Shown here in pieces: positions 1 to 24,260 of a DNA stretch of 64,000 nucleotides. Source of the DNA: Escherichia coli (GTDB lineage Bacteria; Pseudomonadota; Gammaproteobacteria; Enterobacterales; Enterobacteriaceae); NCBI RefSeq assembly GCF_003018235.1, contig NZ_CP027437.1. The stretch is one strand, 5' to 3'. Every line of letters begins with the position of its first letter. The stretch's first letter is position 1. A program made the position numbers and the translations under genes. The notes under the pieces are model-generated. The model was given only the letters and a program-made list of their open reading frames with translations. It made no database searches and was not told the DNA's origin.

Positions 1-199
1 AACTGACAACAAGGGGAAAACGCACGACGTGCTGACCGGAAGTGATGACGGTCGCCACAGCAACACGTCTCTGGCGTGGGGAGCTGGCGTGCAGTTTAAC
101 CCGACCGAATCCGTGGCCATTGATATTGCTTATGAAGGCTCCGGCAGTGGCGACTGGCGCACTGACGGTTTCATCGTGGGTGTCGGTTATAAATTCTGA
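1..199 (+). CDS. lom: Outer membrane protein Lom (Ail/Lom family), 3' end only
   Basis: Frame ending ...VGVGYKF then TGA at 197-199, a typical Ail/Lom C-terminal beta strand; located immediately upstream of stf as in lambda. Confidence 0.7.
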   Translation, partial: TDNKGKTHDVLTGSDDGRHSNTSLAWGAGVQFNPTESVAIDIAYEGSGSGDWRTDGFIVGVGYKF

Positions 200-225
200 T
201 TAGCCAGGTAACACAGTGTTATGAC

Positions 226-252
226 AGCCCGCCGGTTCAGGCGGGCTTTTTT
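226..252 (+). terminator. Rho-independent terminator after lom
   Basis: Stem AGCCCGCC / GGCGGGCT with a 6-nt loop, followed by a T-tract (247-252). Confidence 0.7.
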
Positions 253-263
253 GTGGGGTGAAT

Positions 264-3200
264 ATGGCAGTAAAGATTTCAGGTGTACTGAAAGACGGCA
301 CAGGAAAACCGGTACAGAACTGCACAATCCAGCTGAAAGCAAAACGTAACAGCACCACGGTGGTGGTGAACACGCTGGCCTCAGAAAATCCGGATGAAGC
401 CGGGCGTTACAGTATGGACGTTGAGTATGGTCAGTACAGCGTTATTCTGTTGGTGGAGGGATTCCCGCCGTCACATGCCGGGACTATCACCGTGTATGAA
501 GATTCTCAACCCGGTACGCTGAATGATTTTCTCGGTGCCATGACGGAGGATGATGCCCGTCCGGAGGCACTGCGCCGTTTTGAAGTGATGGTGGAAGAGG
601 TGGCGCGTAACGCGTCCGCAGTGGCACAGAACACGGCAGCCGCGAAGAAGTCAGCCGGCGATGCCAGCACATCAGCCCGTGAGGCGGCAACCCATGCGAC
701 TGATGCTGCAGACTCAGCACGCGCAGCCAGCACGTCAGCCGGACAGGCCGTGTCGTCGGCTCAGTCAGCGTCTTCCAGCGCAGGAACTGCATCAGCAAAG
801 GCCACTGAAGCATCAAAAAGTGCTGCCGCTGCAGAGTCCTCAAAAAGCGCGGCGGCCACCAGTGCCGGTGCGGCAAAAACGTCAGAAACGAATGCTTCAG
901 CGTCACAACAATCAGCAGCCACTTCTGCATCCACCGCGACCACGAAAGCGTCAGAAGCTGCCACCTCAGCCCGGGATGCGGCGGCCTCAAAAGAGGCAGC
1001 GAAATCATCAGAAACGAACGCATCCTCGAGCGCCAGTAGTTCCGCTTCCTCGGCAACGGCGGCAGGAAATTCCGCGAAGGCGGCAAAAACGTCCGAGACG
1101 AACGCCAGGTCTTCTGAGACGGCAGCGGGACAGAGCGCCTCAGCTGCGGCAGGCTCAAAAACAGCGGCTGCATCATCTGCCAGTGCCGCGTCAACAAGTG
1201 CCGGGCAGGCCTCAGCCAGTGCCACTGCCGCCGGAAAATTGGCAGAAAGCGCTGCATTGTCCGCTTCAACAGCCACAACGAAGGCTGGCGAAGCCGCTGA
1301 ACAGGCCAGCGCAGCAGCGAGGTCTGCATCCGCAGCGAAGACATCCGAAACGAACGCGAAAGCGTCGGAAACCAGTGCAGAATCCTCAAAAACGGCAGCT
1401 GCATCGTCCGCCAGTTCGGCGGCGTCATCGGCATCATCTGCGTCTGCTTCAAAAGATGAGGCGACCAGACAGGCATCAGCAGCGAAAGGCAGCGCCACGA
1501 CGGCATCCACGAAGGCGACAGAGGCTGCTGGCAGTGCGACGGCGGCAGCACAGAGCAAGAATACGGCAGAATCCGCAGCAACGCGCGCCGAGACAGCAGC
1601 TAAACGGGCAGAGGATATTGCATCCGCCGTGGCGCTTGAGGATGCAAGTACGACGAAAAAGGGGATAGTACAGCTCAGCAGTGCGACCAACAGTTCGTCT
1701 GAAACGCTGGCGGCAACGCCAAAGGCAGTAAAATCAGCCTATGACAATGCAGAGAAACGTCTGCAGAAAGACCAGAACGGCGCTGATATACCCGATAAGG
1801 GACGCTTCCTGAACAACATTAACGCGGTCAGTAAAACAGACTTTGCTGATAAGCGTGGTATGCGTTATGTGCGGGTTAACGCTCCTGCAGGTGCAATATC
1901 TGGAAAATATTACCCTGTTGTTGTTATGCGTTCTGCTGGCTCAGTAAGCGAACTGGCATCAAGGGTCATTATCACCACGGCAACGCGAACCGCAGGCGAT
2001 CCGATGAATAACTGCGAGTTTAACGGATTTGTTATGCCTGGTGGCTGGACTGACAGGGGGCGTTATGCTTATGGAATGTTCTGGCAATATCAAAACAATG
2101 AACGAGCCATCCACTCAATAATGATGAGTAATAAGGGCGATGATTTGCGCTCTGTGTTCTATGTTGATGGCGCTGCTTTCCCTGTTTTTGCGTTTATCGA
2201 AGATGGCCTGTCAATATCCGCACCTGGTGCTGATCTCGTTGTTAATGATACGACCTATAAGTTTGGGGCAACAAATCCGGCGACTGAATGTATCGCGGCG
2301 GACGTTATCCTTGATTTTAAGAGTGGGCGTGGTTTTTATGAGTCTCATTCGTTAATTGTTAACGATAACTTGTCGTGCAAAAAACTTTTTGCCACAGACG
2401 AAATTGTAGCGCGTGGTGGTAATCAGATTCGAATGATAGGTGGGGAGTATGGTGCATTATGGCGTAATGATGGCGCTAAAACTTACCTGCTGCTTACCAA
2501 TCGAGGTGATGTTTATGGTGGCTGGAATACATTAAGACCGTTTGCTATTGATAACGCAACCGGCGAACTGGTTATTGGAACCAAACTGTCCGCAAGTCTG
2601 AACGGTAATGCATTAACAGCAACAAAGCTGCAAACGCCAAGACTGGTTTCTGGTGTTGAGTTTGATGGTTCCAAAGATATTACTTTAACCGCCGCGCATG
2701 TGGCTGCTTTTGCCAGAAGGGCAACGGATACATATGCCGATGCGGATGGTGGCGTTCCCTGGAATGCCGAATCAGGCGCTTACAATGTCACCCGCTCTGG
2801 CGACAGCTATATTCTGGTTAACTTCTATACCGGAGTCGGAAGTTGCCGGACCCTGCAGATGAAGGCGCATTACAGAAATGGTGGTCTGTTCTACCGTTCT
2901 TCAAGAGATGGCTATGGTTTTGAGGAAGACTGGGCAGAAGTTTATACCTCGAAAAATCTTCCACCAGAAAGCTACCCAGTCGGCGCACCAATCCCGTGGC
3001 CATCAGATACCGTTCCGTCTGGTTATGCCCTGATGCAGGGGCAGACTTTTGACAAATCTGCCTACCCGAAACTTGCAGCCGCTTATCCGTCAGGCGTGAT
3101 CCCTGATATGCGTGGCTGGACGATTAAGGGCAAGCCCGCCAGTGGTCGTGCCGTATTGTCTCAGGAACAGGATGGCATTAAATCGCATACCCACAGCGCC

Positions 3201-3677
3201 AGCGCATCCAGTACGGATTTGGGGACGAAAACCACATCGTCGTTTGATTACGGCACTAAATCCACGAATAACACCGGGGCGCATACGCACAGTCTGAGTG
3301 GCTCTACGGGGTCTGCCGGTGCTCATACTCATGGTAATGGTATTCGTTGGCCAGGAGGCGGCGGTTCTGCGTTAGCATTTTATGATGGCGGTGGGTTCAC
3401 TTATGTCCAGGATTCACAGTATCAAGTAAGCCCGGGGACTTCTTCCAGTAGATCGTATTATCAACGTATTCAGACACAGTCAGCAGGTGCTCATACCCAC
3501 TCGCTGTCTGGTACTGCAGCAAATGCTGGCGCACATGCACATACTGTAGGTATTGGTGCGCATACGCACTCGGTTGCGATTGGGTCACATGGACACACCA
3601 TCACCGTTAACGCTGCTGGTAACGCGGAAAACACCGTCAAAAACATCGCATTTAACTATATTGTGAGGCTCGCATAA
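264..3677 (+). CDS. stf: Side tail fibre protein, lambda Stf-like mosaic (about 1137 aa from the ATG at 264)
   Basis: N-terminus [26 protein letters not shown]... and C-terminus ...[31 protein letters not shown] match my recollection of lambda Stf; a long Ala/Ser/Thr-rich low-complexity segment and a central block resembling Rac StfR. The ORF track starts at GTG 258; ATG 264 is preferred. Confidence 0.9.
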
Positions 3678-4252
3678 TGGCATTCAGAATGAGTGAACAA
3701 GCACGGACCATAAAAATTTATAACCTGCTGGCCGGAACTAATGAATTTATTGGTGAAGGTGACGCATATATTCCTCCTCATACAGGTCTGCCTGCAAACA
3801 GTACCGATATTGCACCGCCAGATATTCCGGCTGGCTTTGTGGCTGTTTTCAACAGTGATGAGGCATCGTGGCATCTCGTTGAAGACCATCGGGGAAAAAC
3901 GGTCTATGACGTGGCTTCCGGCGACGCGTTATTTATTTCTGAACTCGGCTCATTACCGGAAAATGTCACCTGGTTATCCCCGGAAGGGGAGTTTCAGAAG
4001 TGGAACGGTACAGCCTGGGTGAAGGATACGGAAGCAGAAAAACTGTTCCGGATCCGGGAGGCGGAAGAAACAAAAAACAGCCTGATGCAGGTAGCCAGTG
4101 AGCATATAGCGCCGCTTCAGGATGCTGTGGATCTGGAGATCGCAACGGAGGAAGAAACCTTGTTGCTGGAAGCCTGGAAAAAGTATCGGGTGTTGCTGAA
4201 CCGTGTTGATACATCAACTGCACCGGATATTGAATGGCCAGCCCTACCGTAG
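3677..4252 (+). CDS. tfa: Tail fibre assembly protein Tfa
   Basis: 191 aa, [24 protein letters not shown]..., lambda Tfa-like; the start overlaps the stf stop (TAATG). Confidence 0.9.
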
Positions 4253-4349
4253 GGTAAGATATATAAATTCTATAATTAGAAGTATCTTTCCATTTAAGGC
4301 TAGGAAGGGGGGCTTGGAAAACGTAAGGAATCTCACACCGAGATTATTT

Positions 4350-4940
4350 TTATATATCAGGTGTCTGATTTTTTGCTTTAGCTCTTAAAATGGTTTGCCG
4401 CGAGGTTTTGAATTCTTGGGCAATGTCACTTATATTTATACCTGACTTAATTTGCTCTAGTACCCTCTGTATTTGTTCATCATTTAACACAGGTGGGCGA
4501 CCAAATCGCTTTCCTGCGCCCCGTGCTCTTAATATCCCTGAATGAGTACGCTCAAGTAAAAGGTCTCGCTCAAATTCAGCGACTGCTGAAATTACTTGCA
4601 TCATCATTTTTCCAGGTGGACTGGTCAGGTCAACGCCCCCCAATGCTAAGCAATGCACTTTGATACCTGCTTTGGTCAGTTGTTCCACCGTTTTACTGAT
4701 ATCCATTGGATTACAACCGAGGCGATCCAGTTTTGTGACAATCAATGCATCACCTCTTTTCAGTCGATCAAGCAACTGGTTAAAACCAGGACGCTCACTG
4801 GTTGCTGCTGAGCCGCTAATTTGTTCTTCAATTATTTGCTGAGATTTGATGTTAAAACCTGCACTTTCGATTTCCCGACGTTGATTTTTGGTTGTCTGTT
4901 CCAGAGTTGATACCCGACAGTAAGCATAAATTCGAGACAT
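4350..4940 (-). CDS. pin: Serine recombinase, Pin-type DNA invertase
   Basis: 196 aa, [15 protein letters not shown]... with a resolvase/invertase N-terminal catalytic domain and C-terminal HTH; same size and context as K-12 pinQ/pinR. Confidence 0.9.
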
Positions 4941-5258
4941 AGTGAGATCTTCTATACGAAATTGGTGTACATATCATAATGCATCTCAGAAAATAATTTT
5001 GATTATTTTTGTACATATTTGTATGTACACGTTCGAAAATAAACGAATGCGTATGCAACCCCGTAATTTTGGTGAGACCCAAAATCGATTTTGTGAAAAA
5101 TGGCCTTAACTCGGTTTGTTTTTCGAGTTCCGGGGGGACTCAAGGAAGAAGAATAGTGTTGCGTGTTATTTTAACCAGATTTCAAGTTGTTTGGTCGTGA
5201 AAAAGTGGAGCAAAATGTTGTTAAAGTGGAAAAATGATAAAAAAGTAAGTTTATTATA

Positions 5259-5492
5259 TTACATTTTACCATTTAAATTTTTGTTGTCTTTAAGAACTGA
5301 TATCGCTGTTTGTAATAATTCTTTGTTATCCAGCCATGACTTTTTCTTTATGTTTCCTTCAATGTAATCAAGCAATGTTCTGGTATTGATAGGTCTTCCC
5401 TGTTTTGCTACTTCCACTACAGCATCCCCTAGGATAATTCTTACTTCAGGAAGCTGCGCAGGGAACCACTTTAGGGTGTCTTTTGATTTCAT
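5259..5492 (-). CDS. ydfK: Small prophage protein YdfK/YnaE family (cold-shock-induced in K-12)
   Basis: 77-aa product MKSKDTLKWFPAQLPEVRIILGD... from the internal ATG, which has an AAGGA RBS 9 nt upstream; the 88-aa ORF from 5525 is the less likely start. Confidence 0.8.
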   Translation of the reverse strand: MKSKDTLKWFPAQLPEVRIILGDAVVEVAKQGRPINTRTLLDYIEGNIKKKSWLDNKELLQTAISVLKDNKNLNGKM

Positions 5493-6277
5493 GAAGATAT
5501 TCCTTAAAATATTATTGATTTTCATTGCGATATTGTATGTCTGATTCAGGATATGTTGACTTATACATCGGTTTTGTCTGGGTTATTGGATATGCCAATC
5601 CCTAATTTTATTAGAGCATGACTAAAAATGCTGAATATGATAAGGAGCGAAGTGATTATCAGTATGCTGTTCATATAGCCTCGAATTAGTAATGTGTTAT
5701 ATATGATATAGTTGACAATTTTTATCCTGGGTGTTCTTAAAGTTCGTAGATAAACATTGTCGTTTCAGGTATACAGGAATGCTAACAGGTGGCGGCAAAA
5801 ATCAGGCGGTTTATGGCGCAAGCTGAAGTGGCAACTGCAAACTATCTTATGCAGAGACTCTACACGGATTGGGTTTAAAAGTATACATAGATAACAGTTT
5901 TTATCTGAAGAAGAAAAATATCAAGGTGATATAGCCTATATGCCTTTGATGCGGAGGAATGAATGTGATGGGAGTGATGTATCTGAATAGTTGAAAAACC
6001 GCAGACACGCCTTATGCAAGAACGTGCTGCGGTTGGCTGGTAAATTTTTCGATAGTGCGAGTATTGAATGATTTCCAGCCGTTATTGATTTTACGCGTAA
6101 ATCCATGAAAAAACTACTTATCTGTTGGGGAGTTTTTTTGGGGCATATATGGGACAGAAATAGGCCCCAGATAGACACTGAGATCGAACTTAGGATGCTT
6201 TTTAAAAAATGCAACTATCTGAAAAAACCTAGAAAACGCCAAGGAAACCACAGGATGGGAAAAAACACCTGTGAATT

Positions 6278-7561
6278 ATGGATTTCCAGTTATATTCGCT
6301 CGGCGCAGCGTTAGTGTTTCATGAAATATTTTTTCCTGAATCATCAACGGCAATGGCGTTAATTCTGGCAATGGGAACCTACAGTGCAGGTTATGTGGCG
6401 CGTATTGTCGGAGCATTTATTTTCGGCAAAATGGGCGACAGAATCGGGCGTAAAAAAGTGCTCTTTATTACCATCACTATGATGGGGATCTGTACCACCT
6501 TAATTGGTGTGCTGCCGACCTATGCACAAATTGGTGTGTTTGCGCCAATTTTGCTGGTGACGCTGCGTATTATTCAGGGGCTGGGGGCAGGCGCGGAAAT
6601 TTCCGGTGCCGGCACGATGCTGGCGGAATATGCACCAAAAGGTAAGCGCGGAATTATCTCCTCATTTGTGGCTATGGGAACTAACTGCGGAACCTTGAGC
6701 GCAACGGCAATCTGGGCCTTTATGTTCTTCATTCTCAGTAAAGAGGAACTGCTGGCGTGGGGATGGCGTATACCGTTCCTGGCGAGCGTTGTCGTGATGG
6801 TCTTTGCTATCTGGTTGCGTATGAATCTGAAAGAAAGCCCGGTCTTTGAGAAGGTTAACGACAGCAACCAACCGACAGCAAAACCTGCACCTGCTGGTAG
6901 CATGTTCCAGAGCAAATCCTTCTGGCTGGCAACAGGGCTGCGTTTTGGTCAGGCTGGTAACTCCGGTTTAATTCAGACTTTCCTTGCAGGCTATTTAGTA
7001 CAGACGTTATTGTTTAACAAAGCAATTCCAACAGATGCATTGATGATCAGTTCGATTCTCGGCTTTATGACCATTCCGTTCCTTGGTTGGTTATCCGATA
7101 AAATTGGTCGCCGGATCCCGTATATTATTATGAATACCTCCGCGATTGTGCTGGCATGGCCAATGCTTTCTATCATCGTAGATAAAAGCTATGCCCCGAG
7201 CACCATTATGGTGGCACTGATTGTGATTCATAACTGTGCGGTGCTGGGATTATTTGCTCTGGAAAACATTACCATGGCAGAAATGTTCGGCTGTAAAAAC
7301 CGCTTTACCCGGATGGCCATTTCTAAAGAAATTGGTGGTCTTATCGCTTCCGGTTTTGGTCCTATCCTGGCGGGTATTTTCTGCACCATGACGGAGTCCT
7401 GGTATCCGATCGCCATTATGATCATGGCATATTCAGTGATTGGTTTAATCTCTGCGCTGAAAATGCCAGAAGTGAAAGACCGTGATTTAAGTGCGCTGGA
7501 AGACGCTGCGGAAGATCAACCGCGTGTTGTCAGAGCTGCGCAACCTTCCAGAAGTCTTTAA
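6278..7561 (+). pseudogene. ydfJ: MFS metabolite:H+ symporter YdfJ, 5'-truncated at the prophage junction (may still be expressed from the internal ATG)
   Basis: 427-aa ORF beginning MDFQLYSLGAALVFHEIFFP..., which by comparison with KgtP/ProP-type transporters is missing roughly 25-30 N-terminal residues; an in-frame stop lies at 6272-6274. Confidence 0.75.
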
Positions 7562-11047: not shown

Positions 11048-11183
11048 CTCACTGTTCCTCAACGCTTTTGTGTGTCAATAACATAGCACGTGATGCTTAA
11101 GAGCGGGTAATACTGGTTTGCAAGATTGCACTCCGTTATCAGTAAGCCTACGCTATGGAACACCTCGCGTTCAGGAGAAGAAA

Positions 11184-13229
11184 ATGACAACAATGAATCC
11201 TTTCCTTGTGCAAAGCACACTGCCGTATCTGGCTCCCCATTTTGATCAAATTGCCAATCATCACTATCGCCCGGCATTCGATGAGGGAATGCAGCAAAAG
11301 CGGGCAGAAATTGCTGCCATCGCGCTTAACCCGCAAGCGCCTGATTTCAACAATACTATTCTGGCACTGGAACAAAGCGGAGAATTACTTACCCGCGTTA
11401 CCAGCGTCTTTTTTGCGATGACTGCGGCGCATACCAATGATGAATTACAGCGTCTTGATGAACAGTTTTCCGCTGAACTGGCGGAACTGGCTAATGATAT
11501 CTATCTGAACGGTGAATTATTCGCGCGGGTAGATGCTGTCTGGCAGCGCCGTGAATCTCTTGGGCTTGATAGTGAATCCATCCGCCTGGTGGAGGTGATT
11601 CATCAGCGTTTTGTCCTTGCCGGAGCCAAACTTGCGCAAGCTGATAAAGCAAAATTAAAAGTACTGAATACAGAAGCTGCGACCCTAACCAGCCAGTTTA
11701 ACCAGCGGTTACTGGCAGCAAATAAATCCGGCGGTCTGGTTGTGAACGATTTCGCGCAGCTGGCAGGAATGAGTGAGCAAGAGATTGCGCTGGCGGCAGG
11801 GGCGGCTCGCGAGAAAGGTCTGGATAACAAATGGCTGATTCCGTTGCTGAATACCACCCAGCAACCAGCGCTTGCTGAACTGCGCGATCGCGCGACGCGT
11901 GAAAAACTGTTCACTGCGGGCTGGACGCGAGCGGAAAAAAATGATGCCAATGATACCCGCGCTATCATTCAACGTCTGGTGGAGATCCGCGCGCAGCAGG
12001 CGAAACTGCTTGGTTTCCCTCATTATGCCGCATGGAAAATCGCCGATCAGATGGCAAAAACGCCAGAAGCAGCACTCAACTTTATGCGGGAAATTGTTCC
12101 AGCGGCGCGTCAACGTGCGAGCGATGAATTAGCCTCCATACAGGCGGTTATCGATAAGCAGCAGGGCGGGTTTAGCGCGCAGCCGTGGGACTGGGCATTT
12201 TATGCCGAGCAGGTAAGACGTGAGAAATTCGATCTCGATGAATCGCAGCTCAAGCTATATTTTGAATTAAACACGGTGTTGAATGAAGGTGTATTCTGGA
12301 CCGCGAATCAGCTCTTCGGTATTAAGTTTGTCGAACGTTTTGATATTCCTGTCTACCATCCTGACGTTCGTGTGTGGGAAATTTTTGATCATAATGGCGT
12401 GGGGCTGGCGTTATTTTACGGTGATTTCTTCGCCCGTGATTCAAAAAGCGGCGGTGCATGGATGGGCAATTTTGTTGAGCAATCATCGCTTAATGAAACG
12501 CATCCGGTAATTTATAACGTCTGCAATTATCAGAAACCCGCTGCCGGTGAGCCTGCGTTGTTACTCTGGGATGATGTCATAACCTTATTCCATGAATTTG
12601 GTCATACGTTGCACGGCCTCTTTGCCCGCCAGCGTTATGCCACACTTTCCGGCACCAACACGCCGCGTGATTTTGTCGAATTTCCGTCGCAAATCAACGA
12701 ACACTGGGCAACGCATCCGCAGGTATTCGCTCGCTACGCCCGGCATTATCAGAGCGGGGCAGCAATGCCTGACGAACTGCAACAGAAAATGCGTAATGCC
12801 AGCTTGTTCAACAAAGGGTATGAGATGAGCGAACTGCTTAGCGCCGCACTTCTCGATATGCGCTGGCATTGCCTGGAAGAAAACGAAGCAATGCAGGATG
12901 TCGATGATTTCGAATTGCGGGCGCTGGTGGCGGAAAATATGGATCTTCCCGCTATACCGCCACGCTATCGCAGCAGTTATTTCGCCCATATTTTTGGTGG
13001 CGGATATGCCGCAGGTTATTACGCTTATCTGTGGACACAAATGTTGGCCGATGATGGTTACCAGTGGTTTGTTGAGCAGGGCAGATTAACGCGTGAAAAT
13101 GGGCTGCGTTTTCGCGAGGCGATCCTTTCCAGAGGTAACAGCGAGGATCTGGAACGCCTGTATCGACAATGGCGCGGTAAGGCACCTCAGATTATGCCGA
13201 TGCTGCAACATCGTGGCTTGAACGTATAA
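11184..13229 (+). CDS. dcp: Dipeptidyl carboxypeptidase II (M3 family zinc peptidase)
   Basis: 681 aa from MTTMNPFLVQSTLPYLAPHFDQI..., HEFGH zinc motif, AGGAG RBS at 11173-11177. Confidence 0.95.
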   Translation: MTTMNPFLVQSTLPYLAPHFDQIANHHYRPAFDEGMQQKRAEIAAIALNPQAPDFNNTILALEQSGELLTRVTSVFFAMTAAHTNDELQRLDEQFSAELAELANDIYLNGELFARVDAVWQRRESLGLDSESIRLVEVIHQRFVLAGAKLAQADKAKLKVLNTEAATLTSQFNQRLLAANKSGGLVVNDFAQLAGMSEQEIALAAGAAREKGLDNKWLIPLLNTTQQPALAELRDRATREKLFTAGWTRAEKNDANDTRAIIQRLVEIRAQQAKLLGFPHYAAWKIADQMAKTPEAALNFMREIVPAARQRASDELASIQAVIDKQQGGFSAQPWDWAFYAEQVRREKFDLDESQLKLYFELNTVLNEGVFWTANQLFGIKFVERFDIPVYHPDVRVWEIFDHNGVGLALFYGDFFARDSKSGGAWMGNFVEQSSLNETHPVIYNVCNYQKPAAGEPALLLWDDVITLFHEFGHTLHGLFARQRYATLSGTNTPRDFVEFPSQINEHWATHPQVFARYARHYQSGAAMPDELQQKMRNASLFNKGYEMSELLSAALLDMRWHCLEENEAMQDVDDFELRALVAENMDLPAIPPRYRSSYFAHIFGGGYAAGYYAYLWTQMLADDGYQWFVEQGRLTRENGLRFREAILSRGNSEDLERLYRQWRGKAPQIMPMLQHRGLNV

Positions 13230-13593
13230 ACACCACCAATGGCTGGCCTGGATTTATCGCCAGACCAGCCTCGTTATAGCAGTAATTGCAGCAGCTGGGT
13301 GAGGGCAAACTTCACCGCTAATGCGAATGCCGTTTCGCAGTCGCCAGCAAAATTACTTTTTTTGTATACCCTTCCGTTATAATAATTTTCAAATTTATAA
13401 ATCTGATTGTTCTGAAATATGTTTAAGACTCTTTAATCTTCTTCTTACTTTAGTGAGTAAAATTCTCTGAATATTTGACAGCTAGTTGCCTGATTTTAAA
13501 TGCCTTATAACAATTGGCAGTATTCTTATTTGTCAATTATAAAAATAGCAACCAGACTTAATAAGTCAAACCAAACGCAATTAAGGAGTCAGT

Positions 13594-13986
13594 ATGAAAT
13601 TTCAGGCCATTGTATTAGCAAGTTTTCTTGTCATGCCTTATGCGTTGGCAGATGACCAGGGCGGATTAAAACAGGATGCAGCGCCACCGCCGCCTCATGC
13701 AATAGAAGATGGCTATCGCGGAACCGATGATGCAAAAAAAATGACCGTTGATTTCGCAAAAACCATGCACGATGGCGCTTCGGTTTCACTGCGCGGTAAT
13801 TTGATTTCTCACAAAGGAGAAGACCGTTACGTTTTTCGCGATAAGAGCGGTGAAATTAATGTTGTTATTCCTGCGGCAGTCTTTGATGGACGAGAAGTTC
13901 AGCCGGACCAGATGATCAACATTAGCGGAAGTCTGGATAAGAAAAGCGCTCCGGCCGTCGTTCGGGTCACTCATTTGCAGAAATAA
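13594..13986 (+). CDS. ydeI: Periplasmic OB-fold (BOF/YgiW family) stress protein YdeI
   Basis: 130 aa with signal peptide [19 protein letters not shown]. Confidence 0.85.
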
Positions 13987-14240
13987 AAATAAATTAGCCT
14001 GATGGCCTGAACTACTGGGCCATTAGGGTATTGGGTTATGCTATTTGTCATCCTTTTAATTGCGATAATGCAGGCTTAATTTACAGAATTAAACACTTTT
14101 TTATCTGCTGATTTTGTTTCAAATCACAATGTTATCTCAGAGATGACTCATAACTTAGGATTTCTATGAAAATATTGACGTAATTTTGCTTTTCTCTCGT
14201 TAGAATAGCGCGCACAAGGAACTGTGAAAAAGGAGTGGCA

Positions 14241-15131
14241 ATGATCAAGAAGACAACGGAAATTGATGCCATCTTGTTAAATCTCAATAAGGCTATCGAT
14301 GCCCACTACCAGTGGCTGGTAAGTATGTTTCGCAGCGTAGTCGCGAGAGATGCCAGTAAGCCAGAAATAACGGATAACCATTCTTATGGACTGTGCCAGT
14401 TTGGTCGGTGGATTGATCATCTGGGACCACTCGATAATGATGAATTACCTTATGTTCGGCTAATGGATTCTGCCCATCAACATATGCATAACTGTGGTCG
14501 GGAATTAATGCTGGCTATTGTTGAAAATCACTGGCAGGACGCGCATTTCGACGCCTTTCAGGAGGGGTTGCTTTCTTTTACTGCGGCATTAACCGATTAC
14601 AAAATTTATTTGCTGACGATCCGTAGCAATATGGATGTTTTGACGGGATTGCCGGGTCGTCGGGTTCTTGATGAATCCTTTGATCATCAGTTACGCAACG
14701 CTGAGCCTCTGAATCTTTATTTAATGTTGTTGGATATTGACCGATTTAAATTGGTTAATGATACCTACGGGCATTTAATCGGCGATGTAGTATTACGCAC
14801 CCTGGCAACTTACTTAGCCAGTTGGACGCGCGATTACGAAACGGTTTATCGCTACGGTGGCGAAGAATTTATCATTATTGTCAAAGCGGCTAATGATGAA
14901 GAAGCATGTCGTGCAGGTATCAGAATTTGCCAGTTAGTCGATAACCATGCCATCACACATTCTGAAGGGCATATCAACATTACCGTGACAGCAGGTGTGA
15001 GTCGCGCATTTCCTGAAGAGCCTCTGGATGTGGTCATTGGAAGAGCGGACCGGGCAATGTATGAGGGTAAGCAAACCGGAAGAAATCGCTGTATGTTTAT
15101 TGACGAACAAAACGTGATTAACCGAGTTTAA
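14241..15131 (+). CDS. dgcZ: Diguanylate cyclase DgcZ (zinc-sensing CZB domain plus GGDEF)
   Basis: 296 aa from MIKKTTEIDAILLNLNKAIDAHYQW...; GGEEF motif; AAGGAG RBS at 14229-14234. Confidence 0.95.
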   Translation: MIKKTTEIDAILLNLNKAIDAHYQWLVSMFRSVVARDASKPEITDNHSYGLCQFGRWIDHLGPLDNDELPYVRLMDSAHQHMHNCGRELMLAIVENHWQDAHFDAFQEGLLSFTAALTDYKIYLLTIRSNMDVLTGLPGRRVLDESFDHQLRNAEPLNLYLMLLDIDRFKLVNDTYGHLIGDVVLRTLATYLASWTRDYETVYRYGGEEFIIIVKAANDEEACRAGIRICQLVDNHAITHSEGHINITVTAGVSRAFPEEPLDVVIGRADRAMYEGKQTGRNRCMFIDEQNVINRV

Positions 15132-17855: not shown

Positions 17856-17900
17856 CATACGCACAGAATGTGATGCCAGCACTCTGTGCGTATGCTTTTA
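17856..17900. terminator. Terminator hairpin after eamA (12-bp stem plus T-tract)
   Basis: CATACGCACAGA / TCTGTGCGTATG followed by CTTTTA; overlaps the stop codon of the convergent regulator gene. Confidence 0.65.
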
Positions 17901-18596
17901 TCGCGGGAAAAAGTACTTTACCTGGAACTCGAAAATATTGCTGTAAAGTAACGAATAATCCAGCGGAATAGAGTTACTGTCCACAGCCTGGGTCTGAATT
18001 TTAAGTATGGGATCCCGTGGGCTGATCCGTAAAATACTGGCGATTTCTGGGGTAGGAAAAGTAGGGGAGAAAGTTTCAAAGGTGCCAATGATTTTGATCC
18101 CGCATTCGTTCTCAATATACGAAAATTTGGATTTTTGCATATGTGCTACGGTTAAATCAGGAAAACGTGCCACTGACATCCACGTTTCTTCTAATTGTGC
18201 TGCATTATCCTCAATGAATCGCAGTCTCTTTATGTAATAAACCTGCTCACCAGTCACTAAATTCAGCTCAGTCGCAATAGGGGGAGAAGCATCCTGCACT
18301 TCAAATTTCATAATCTGACTTCCTGCCTCCTTGCCGCTTTTATGCGCAATTTCACTGAAGCTGTTCATGTGATCAATGTGTGCAACAAAATTCTTTTTTT
18401 GAATATATGTTCCTGAACCATGCTTTCTATGAATAATTCCTTCGCCTTCCAGCAAGGATAATGCCTTACGCAGGGTATTACGCGAAACATTATAACGAAC
18501 AGCGAGTTCAGCTTCTGACGGCAACAAATCACCAACATGCCATGAATAGCCATTGATCTCGGATTTAAGTAAGCGGGCAATCTTTTGAAAAATCAC
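17898..18596 (-). CDS. GntR/HutC-family transcriptional regulator (HTH plus UTRA effector domain)
   Basis: 232 aa; HTH segment AELAVRYNVSRNTLRKAL; divergent from the PTS operon. Confidence 0.85.
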   Translation of the reverse strand: MIFQKIARLLKSEINGYSWHVGDLLPSEAELAVRYNVSRNTLRKALSLLEGEGIIHRKHGSGTYIQKKNFVAHIDHMNSFSEIAHKSGKEAGSQIMKFEVQDASPPIATELNLVTGEQVYYIKRLRFIEDNAAQLEETWMSVARFPDLTVAHMQKSKFSYIENECGIKIIGTFETFSPTFPTPEIASILRISPRDPILKIQTQAVDSNSIPLDYSLLYSNIFEFQVKYFFPR

Positions 18597-18755
18597 TTTT
18601 GCACCTTTTAAGAGCCATTGAAAACAAGGAGTTGAGTCCTGATTGGTTTATCGTATGGCCGAGTCGTTTAATTATTACCCTGATGTTGAACAACTTTATT
18701 GCTGTATTACTGTGATCAATGTACCAGGACGTATAGCTACTGCGGGATATGATAT

Positions 18756-18768
18756 TTACACAATGTAA
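18756..18768. promoter_or_regulatory. Candidate operator palindrome TTACA-caa-TGTAA in the regulator/PTS divergent region
   Basis: Perfect 5-bp inverted repeat about 30 bp upstream of the IIB start codon. Confidence 0.3.
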
Positions 18769-18794
18769 TCTGTTATATACCAGTAAGGGAAAAT

Positions 18795-19106
18795 ATGAAA
18801 AAGATATTGTTAGTTTGCGCTGCGGGCATGTCAACCAGTATGCTGGTTAAACGTATGATTGATCATGCTAACGCTATTTCACTTGAAGTTAATATTTCCG
18901 CATTGGCGATTGCAGAGGCTAAAGGGAAAATTAAAAATAACGAAGTTGACGTTGTTTTACTTGGCCCGCAAGTTCGCTTTCAGAAACCAGAGATTGAAGC
19001 TGTTGCACAGGGGAAAATGCCTGTAGCTGTTATCGAGATGAAAGACTATGGCACCATGAACGGACAGGCAGTTCTTGAATTTGCGATGAAACTACTGCAA
19101 GAGTAA
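18795..19106 (+). CDS. PTS lactose/cellobiose-family EIIB component
   Basis: 103 aa, MKKILLVCAAGMSTSMLV... with the catalytic Cys in the CAAGMSTS motif. Confidence 0.9.
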   Translation: MKKILLVCAAGMSTSMLVKRMIDHANAISLEVNISALAIAEAKGKIKNNEVDVVLLGPQVRFQKPEIEAVAQGKMPVAVIEMKDYGTMNGQAVLEFAMKLLQE

Positions 19107-19229
19107 GAATCTAATATTATTAAACTATTACCTGAACTAACTTTTCACACATCATAAAATGGATATGGCATACATGCTTTATTGGGATGTATAAATATCC
19201 AGAACAACACGTATAAAAAAATGAGATTA

Positions 19230-20543
19230 ATGACCTCATTCGAACGTGGAATGGAACGTTTTCTTGTTCCAGTTGCTATCAAGTTAAACTCACAAAAACA
19301 TGTTGCAGCGGTGAGAGATGGATTCGTTTTTACGTTTCCAATTATCATGGCAAGCTCATTAATTATATTAATAAACTTTGCCATATTATCGCCAGACGGC
19401 TTTATTGCCGGACTGCTGCATCTGAACAGCGTTTTTCCCAACCTTGAAAAAGCACAAGCTATTTTTACTCCGGTAATGAATGGCTCTGTAAATATCATGT
19501 CAATTATGATTGCTTTCCTGGTCGCCAGAAATATGGCGATTAGCTATGAGCAAGATGATCTTTTATGCGGATTAACGGCAATAGGCGCATTTTTTATTGT
19601 TTATACGCCATATCAGATGATAGATGGACAAGCATTCCTGACGACCAAATATCTCGGCGCACAGGGGTTGTTTGTTGCTGTTATCGTTGCATTAATCACC
19701 AGTGAAATATTTTGTCGCTTAGCTCGAAACCCAAAAATCACCATAACGATGCCGGCATCTGTACCTCCTGCGGTAGCGCGTTCATTTAAAGTTTTATTGC
19801 CAATATTTTTTGTCATGGTGTTCTTTTCCGCACTTAATTATTGCCTGACACTGATATCCCCGGCAGGATTAAACGATCTCATTTACACATTAATCCAGAC
19901 GCCGCTCAAACATATGGGAACGAATATCTTTGCGGTAATTATCCTGGGGGCTGTGGGTAATTTCCTGTGGGTGCTGGGGATCCACGGACCTAATACCACC
20001 TCGGCAATTCGAGAAACTGTTTTTTCTGAGGCTAATCTGGAGAATCTCTCCTGGGCCGCTCAACACGGCACTACCTGGGGCGCGCCATATCCGATTACCT
20101 GGACTTCTATTAATGATGCATTCGCCAACTGCGGCGGTTCAGGCATGACGTTGGGATTATTGTTGGCTATTTTCATCGCTTCTAAGCGTGCGGAATACCG
20201 TGATCTGGCAAAAATGTCATTTATCCCCGGTATTTTCAATATCAATGAACCGATAATGTTCGGCCTTCCTATTGTACTTAACCCCATCATGATGGTGCCG
20301 TTTATTCTGGTTCCCATTGTTAACTGTGCCATTGGTTACTGCTTTGTTTCGATGGAAATTATTCCACCGGTTGCTTATGCCGTGCCCTGGACTACGCCCG
20401 GACCTTTAATTGCTTTCCTCGGAACCGGGGGAAACTGGCTGGCGTTACTGGTGGGTTTTTTATGTTTAGGTGTGGCGACAATGATCTATTTACCTTTTGT
20501 TATTGCAGCCAACAAGGTCAATAACATGACAACTAACGGATAA
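19230..20543 (+). CDS. PTS lactose/cellobiose-family EIIC permease
   Basis: Polytopic membrane protein; the N-terminus aligns to ChbC ([15 protein letters not shown]). Start is uncertain: ATGs at 19182, 19221, 19230 and 19251. Confidence 0.85.
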   Translation: MTSFERGMERFLVPVAIKLNSQKHVAAVRDGFVFTFPIIMASSLIILINFAILSPDGFIAGLLHLNSVFPNLEKAQAIFTPVMNGSVNIMSIMIAFLVARNMAISYEQDDLLCGLTAIGAFFIVYTPYQMIDGQAFLTTKYLGAQGLFVAVIVALITSEIFCRLARNPKITITMPASVPPAVARSFKVLLPIFFVMVFFSALNYCLTLISPAGLNDLIYTLIQTPLKHMGTNIFAVIILGAVGNFLWVLGIHGPNTTSAIRETVFSEANLENLSWAAQHGTTWGAPYPITWTSINDAFANCGGSGMTLGLLLAIFIASKRAEYRDLAKMSFIPGIFNINEPIMFGLPIVLNPIMMVPFILVPIVNCAIGYCFVSMEIIPPVAYAVPWTTPGPLIAFLGTGGNWLALLVGFLCLGVATMIYLPFVIAANKVNNMTTNG

Positions 20544-20564
20544 TCCCATTTACACAGGAAGGAG

Positions 20565-20882
20565 ATGTTGATGTTTGCAGATGAAGAACTTGTTATGGAG
20601 TTACTGATCAACGCGGGACAGGCACGTTCTGATGCGATGGAAGCCATACGTTGTGCCGGGCAAAAAGACTGGCAGGGCGCAACTCAGCTAATGGCCAGTT
20701 CGGAATTAGCCTGTCTTCAGGCACATAAGATTCAGACCGCGTTAATTAGTCAGGATGAAGGTTGTGGCAAAATAGTAGTTAATTTAATTCTGGTTCATGC
20801 ACAGGATCATTTGATGAATGCAATATTATGCCAGGATTTAGCCAGGGAAATTATTTCATTAAGAAAAGAGCTCCATGCCTGA
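20565..20882 (+). CDS. PTS lactose/cellobiose-family EIIA component
   Basis: About 105 aa, ChbA-like (LVHAQDHLM motif); alternative start at 20571 with a GGAG RBS. Confidence 0.85.
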   Translation: MLMFADEELVMELLINAGQARSDAMEAIRCAGQKDWQGATQLMASSELACLQAHKIQTALISQDEGCGKIVVNLILVHAQDHLMNAILCQDLAREIISLRKELHA

Positions 20883-20934
20883 TTTTTTCCTCCAGTGCGA
20901 TAGCTGGAGGAAATTATTACACTCTTAAGGATAA

Positions 20935-23985
<3,051 letters not shown>

Positions 23986-24012
23986 GACTTCAGGAAGATA
24001 TTACGGAGATAT

Positions 24013-24036
24013 CAGGCTCTGTGATCAGAGCCTGAC
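24013..24036. terminator. Hairpin between the convergent glucosidase gene and marB
   Basis: TCAGGCTCTG / CAGAGCCTGA stem with a 4-nt loop. Confidence 0.55.
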
Positions 24037-24041
24037 AATAA

Positions 24042-24260
24042 CTACATAGCGTGTTGATTATAATAGGGCACGCCGAGCGCATCCGACTTATCACTGCCAG
24101 TACCCATGTGATTTAAATCAAACGGTGGTTGTTCCTGCGATGGGGGAACAACCACGACATTGGCACAGGAAGTAACAACCTGCTGCGTGGTTTGTTCCGC
24201 AATGCCCTGCGTGGAAAAGAGAATAAACGCAGCTGCTATTGCGGATAAAAGTGGTTTCAT
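24042..24260 (-). CDS. marB: Periplasmic protein MarB
   Basis: 72 aa, MKPLLSAIAAAFILFSTQGIA... Confidence 0.9.
   Translation of the reverse strand: MKPLLSAIAAAFILFSTQGIAEQTTQQVVTSCANVVVVPPSQEQPPFDLNHMGTGSDKSDALGVPYYNQHAM

Follow-up and report, generated by a model that had tools for sequence, protein, structure and literature searches.

The interval between dcp and ydeI in the Escherichia coli DNA analysed here, a stretch of 64 kb referred to below as the window, raises the question of what has become of ydeJ. A preliminary description of the sequence placed this gene between ydeI and dcp in K-12, considered the space separating the two genes in the window too short to hold it, and proposed that ydeJ is absent from the strain. 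The question is then whether the gene has gone, whether it has gone completely, and whether the short interval reflects a loss on the part of its carriers or a gain on the part of K-12. Comparison with K-12 and with other complete genomes makes it very probable that the interval is the scar of one old 475-bp deletion in ydeJ, carried as an inherited allele in which YdeJ would be lost and ydeI intact; that a single event lies behind it is suggested by the junction sequence that its carriers share.

The dcp-ydeI interval compared with K-12

The spacing given in the preliminary description, 364 bp, is exact: the dcp stop codon occupies positions 13227-13229, and the ATG of ydeI is at 13594 (Table 1). 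The mechanical open reading frame that contains dcp begins at 11118, and the gene itself comprises 11184-13229. The interval had also been called AT-rich, a label that suits it as a whole (36.3% G+C against 47.4% for the 64-kb window) and suits positions 13353-13593 (27.4% G+C), but not its left third (13230-13352), which is 53.7% G+C and holds a hairpin and a remnant of ydeJ. Nor was it right to regard the interval as non-coding, since an 81-bp fragment of the 3′-end of ydeJ lies inside it and it is thus not entirely non-coding in origin. The proper label would be a ydeJ pseudogene remnant followed by the ydeI upstream region, rather than plain intergenic DNA.

Table 1. Features of the dcp-ydeI region, in window coordinates
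Feature	Position	Strand	Basis
dcp (peptidyl-dipeptidase Dcp), intact, 681 codons, left border	11184..13229	+	ORF; 99% identity to, and collinear with, the annotated 2046-bp dcp of SC418
G+C-rich hairpin	13241..13270		RNA fold -18.2 kcal/mol, z = -3.84
ydeJ pseudogene remnant, last 26 codons and stop, no start codon	13274..13354	-	Translation; tblastn; RefSeq annotation of the same 81 bp elsewhere
Deletion junction, 475 bp of K-12 (L002 2053-2527) missing	13352..13353		Alignment and coordinate computation
241 bp kept from the former divergent region between ydeJ and ydeI	13353..13593		Aligns with K-12 (L002 2528-2767), 92% identity
ydeI, intact, 130 codons, right border	13594..13986	+	Translation; Pfam BOF PF04076; NCBIfam NF007471

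The gene order stated for K-12 agrees with the annotation of the K-12 derivative EPI300, in which dcp (+), ydeJ (-, 519 bp) and ydeI (+) are followed by dgcZ, mgtT, mgtS and ydeE. The ydeJ gene of EPI300 (positions 1974-2492 of the locus, L002) is identical in sequence to that of MG1655, and the possibility that K-12 also lacks a gene at this site can be set aside. The alignment with K-12 (EPI300) to which the preliminary description had pointed, extended to VCSW7 and ST131, places a single gap of 475 columns in the window relative to K-12, with collinear flanks that are 92.5% and 92.0% identical. The missing segment takes in codons 1-146 of the 172 codons of ydeJ, including the GTG start, and extends 35 bp upstream of it; a full ydeJ neither fits nor occurs in the window, so that the proposed absence of the gene is borne out to this extent. 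The K-12 dcp-ydeJ-ydeI-dgcZ locus (b1538-b1535) and the window are alike in their flanking genes, in orientation, in the dcp/ydeJ hairpin and in the ydeI-proximal intergenic DNA, with a flank identity of 92-96%; they differ in that the 475 bp with the translation start and the bulk of ydeJ are present only in K-12; of the gene, the window keeps 81 bp at the 3′-end.

In K-12 the breakpoints fall between CAGCAAAA and TGCATAAC, and between AGGTGAT and TTGCTTTT. The microhomology between them is at most 1 nt, the alignment contains no foreign DNA at the junction between 13352 and 13353, and the breakpoints carry none of the direct repeats, IS ends or REP elements expected of an IS- or repeat-mediated deletion. 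Because the breakpoints share no more than one base, the deletion would have occurred by illegitimate (homology-independent) recombination or by slippage, rather than by repeat- or IS-mediated excision.

To the left of the junction, where dcp and the former ydeJ converge, the hairpin separates their 3′-ends and has no T run. None of 200 shuffled sequences folded equally well, and the structure is kept in all four aligned alleles (window, K-12, VCSW7 and ST131). A consensus terminator scan of the interval did not call it; it is probably a transcript-end structure shared by dcp and the former ydeJ. To the right, the product of ydeI is a YdeI family OB-fold stress tolerance protein, matching the NCBIfam equivalog NF007471 over positions 1-130 of 130 (258.9 bits against a cutoff of 179) and the Pfam BOF family (E 4.9e-41). 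The sequence between the junction and ydeI is presumed to be the promoter and leader of this gene, and a Shine-Dalgarno-like AAGGAG is found at 13583-13588. A promoter consensus scan of the interval called no plus-strand promoter for ydeI; its two promoter-like matches, against a shuffle expectation of 1.2 ± 1.0, are both on the minus strand (13569-13542 and 13520-13493). The promoter and terminator scans of the interval and of the K-12 intergenic region stayed near the shuffle expectation throughout and are uninformative on regulation. As the hairpin on the dcp side and the 241 bp upstream of ydeI, with the AAGGAG motif, have been kept, the deletion probably does not alter the expression of either dcp or ydeI.

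The ydeJ remnant and the direction of change

Read on the minus strand, the remnant translates as NFAGDCETAFALAVKFALTQLLQLLL followed by a stop codon, as compared with HFAGDCETVLALAVRFALAQLLQLLL and a stop at the C-terminus of K-12 YdeJ. A tblastn search with K-12 YdeJ, which the preliminary description had named as a check, was run on the whole 64-kb window; the sole match is to residues 147-172 and lies at 13354..13277 (81% identity, E 2e-8). The statement that ydeJ is absent thus stands for the full gene, but a remnant of 26 codons had been overlooked. The window contains nothing that would qualify as a functional ydeJ, that is, a full open reading frame of ~172 codons with a start codon and positions 3-155 of the CinA profile. 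The fragment has the properties of a remnant or scar, as it combines significant similarity with a syntenic position between dcp and ydeI and with the minus-strand orientation of K-12 ydeJ. Moreover, in VCSW7, SC418 and ST131 MB1159, RefSeq/PGAP lists the same 81 bp as a pseudogene that is incomplete, "missing N-terminus".

Two lines of evidence bear on the polarity of the change, the remnant itself and the occurrence of ydeJ in Salmonella known from the literature. Since the 3′-end of ydeJ is found in frame, with its stop codon, and in the expected place and orientation, the short allele would derive by deletion from an ancestor that carried the gene. Salmonella Typhimurium has the gene too, under the locus tag STM14_1830 (PMC7387798), and ydeJ would thus predate E. 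coli. Judged from these sequences, the short interval very probably arose by deletion from a ydeJ-bearing ancestor and does not represent the state before an insertion in K-12. The opposite polarity, in which the short interval would be an ancestral empty site and ydeJ would have been inserted in the K-12, B1 and O157 lineages, draws on the divergence of ~8% between the flanks of ydeJ-bearing and ydeJ-lacking haplotypes, which marks both as old alleles. Yet in the supposedly empty allele the 26 terminal codons of ydeJ and its stop stand in frame and correctly placed, and an insertion cannot leave a piece of itself at a site that it never occupied. Together with the Salmonella gene (PMC7387798), and with breakpoints that lack target-site duplications and mobile-element ends, this makes an insertion in K-12 highly improbable.

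A full copy of ydeJ could also have been relocated to another part of this strain's genome, of which the visible sequence is 64 kb. This is very unlikely, given that tblastn found no second YdeJ-like sequence within the window and that, in complete genomes with only the remnant, a megablast search with K-12 ydeJ gives one place per record, namely the remnant; the possibility of a gene elsewhere, which the preliminary description had raised against its own proposal, is not borne out by these results. The interval is thus best read as a deletion scar. One old event, by illegitimate recombination or slippage, would have removed codons 1-146 of the minus-strand gene along with its start codon and 35 promoter-proximal bp. 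It would have spared the dcp/ydeJ hairpin, 26 codons of the ydeJ 3′-end that are now dead, and 241 bp before an intact ydeI. The allele would then have been inherited, perhaps with some spread by recombination between lineages, and become the standard state for a large part of the species, including the B2 strains 536 and ST131, and in many carriers a second deletion would afterwards have taken out ydeI too. The outcome for the strain of the window would be the loss of YdeJ, a protein of the CinA/PncC-domain family.

Alleles among E. coli genomes and other variable segments of the window

The alleles were counted in 5426 complete E. coli genomes. The window is E. coli chromosomal sequence: all but a few of these genomes (5418) match a probe of 1301 bp taken around the interval, and many strains align collinearly with 25 kb of the window at ~98-99% identity. 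K-12 ydeJ is covered to at least 80% in 3607 genomes. The junction was followed with an 80-bp probe centred on 13352 and 13353, a match being counted at 80% or more of its length; it matches 1760 genomes, about a third, with 735 of the matches at 99% identity or better. Genomes with an intact ydeJ and genomes with the junction together make up 5367 of the 5426. Among the junction carriers are strain 536 and ST131, which belong to phylogroup B2. The ydeJ-deleted alleles of VCSW7, SC418 and 536 have the same junction, the same 81-bp remnant and an intact ydeI, with no difference of substance from that of the window, to which VCSW7 is 99.3% identical over the 1301 bp. The deletion of ydeJ is a shared, inherited E. 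coli allele and is not private to one strain. An assembly or sequencing artefact, in which a longer region had been collapsed, has a negligible probability when the junction is matched in 1760 independently finished genomes and lies between unique flanks with no repeats able to collapse. The gene-loss polymorphism is real and lineage-typical, and it is not novel, in that the remnant is already annotated in RefSeq; a literature search found no paper on a ydeJ deletion polymorphism, only functional data on YdeJ.

The junction carriers fall into two classes. In ~680 genomes ydeJ is deleted and ydeI is intact, as in the window, this number being the 4285 genomes in which dcp and ydeI are contiguous minus the 3607 with ydeJ. 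In ~1080 genomes the ydeJ deletion is accompanied by a second deletion of 504 bp; an alternative count of 1123 for this class is a slight overestimate, as some single-deletion genomes are joined from two pieces. The second deletion, seen in ST131 MB1159 (L003 2055-2183), is equivalent to window positions ~13398-13901. It takes the ydeI upstream region and ~102 codons of the gene and leaves a 90-bp pseudogene fragment of the ydeI 3′-end. Like the window, ST131 and other B2-type strains with both deletions have the first junction and the remnant; they differ in the additional loss of 504 bp that breaks ydeI, which is whole in the window. The three alleles form a nested series of which the window is the intermediate form.

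The second deletion also bears on whether the interval might have gained a new function, in the form of a small open reading frame that spans the junction or of a small RNA. Two mechanical open reading frames on the plus strand, of 47 codons (13239-13382) and 49 codons (13321-13470), do cross the junction, and the two minus-strand promoter-like sites persist. Nothing backs these reading frames, whose sizes are expected by chance, the number of promoter-like sites is close to the shuffle expectation, and an Rfam scan of positions 12900-14400, at E values up to 1, returned no matches. Since the 504-bp deletion removes ~195 of the 241 retained upstream bp (window 13398-13593) in the ~1080 genomes, this part of the interval is dispensable. 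A new function of the interval has no backing and is most improbable.

With regard to the rest of the window, several other segments vary between strains. Positions 1-7560 contain genes for a prophage tail fibre, tail fibre assembly and a recombinase, according to the annotation of the collinear SC418 genome, and these adjoin ydfK, ynfT and an N-terminally truncated ydfJ. Because positions 1-3298 are only 97% identical to SC418 and 3299-3523 are unaligned, the tail-fibre end appears to be variable. Between eamA and marB, at ~17900-24080, lies a cluster of ~6.2 kb, present also in SC418, that encodes a GntR-family regulator, PTS IIB, IIC and IIA components, a carbohydrate porin and a 6-phospho-beta-glucosidase. 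As eamA and marB are just 30 bp apart in EPI300, the cluster is a predicted accessory island for sugar utilisation. An autotransporter open reading frame of the ECSE_1600 family, at 46651-50202, has 1183 codons as against 1806 in SC418, with ~1.8 kb missing at ~50180 relative to that genome; the gene is probably truncated and without its C-terminal part. Downstream of hipBA, at 52129-52486, the window has 357 bp where SC418 has ~6.7 kb with genes for a SIR2-family deacylase and a LysR regulator, an ISNCY transposase remnant and a number of small metabolic genes, and the segment is, from this comparison, a putative presence/absence polymorphism.

The lost protein YdeJ

K-12 YdeJ is a single-domain CinA/PncC protein that matches Pfam PF02464 over the full profile (E 9e-48) and NCBIfam NF002972 at 327.7 bits. 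It shares this domain with PncC (YgaD) and YfaY; no part of the domain core is encoded in the window. YdeJ is reported not to act as an NMN deamidase; its catalytic YxNxxK block carries substitutions, with the catalytic Tyr and Asn missing (PMC3855486). Both PGAP and NCBIfam NF002972 label the protein "2-oxo-tetronate isomerase". As a function of YdeJ this was considered and rejected: the activity is assigned to OtnI (b2739), and the papers examined on that name make no link to YdeJ or CinA. The name looks like a labelling error.

In Salmonella, ydeJ has been renamed rdsA; its expression is inversely proportional to negative supercoiling, and its deletion raises negative supercoiling (PMC7387798). 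It is unlikely that the nested series of alleles records a stepwise adaptive loss, with the window as an intermediate stage, instead of neutral decay; if it did, the loss of YdeJ (RdsA) would shift the set-point of DNA supercoiling, and the loss of YdeI would alter the responses to envelope stress and to antimicrobial peptides. Whatever drove the losses, the locus offers a simple marker of lineages, with three states, in which ydeJ and ydeI are intact, ydeJ is deleted, or both are deleted. The strain of the window is, on the evidence of its sequence, a predicted natural YdeJ (RdsA) null, like a third of E. coli, and is best recorded as negative for this protein. Should YdeJ affect supercoiling in E. 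coli in the way reported for Salmonella, a third of strains would be natural null mutants that could be useful for its study.
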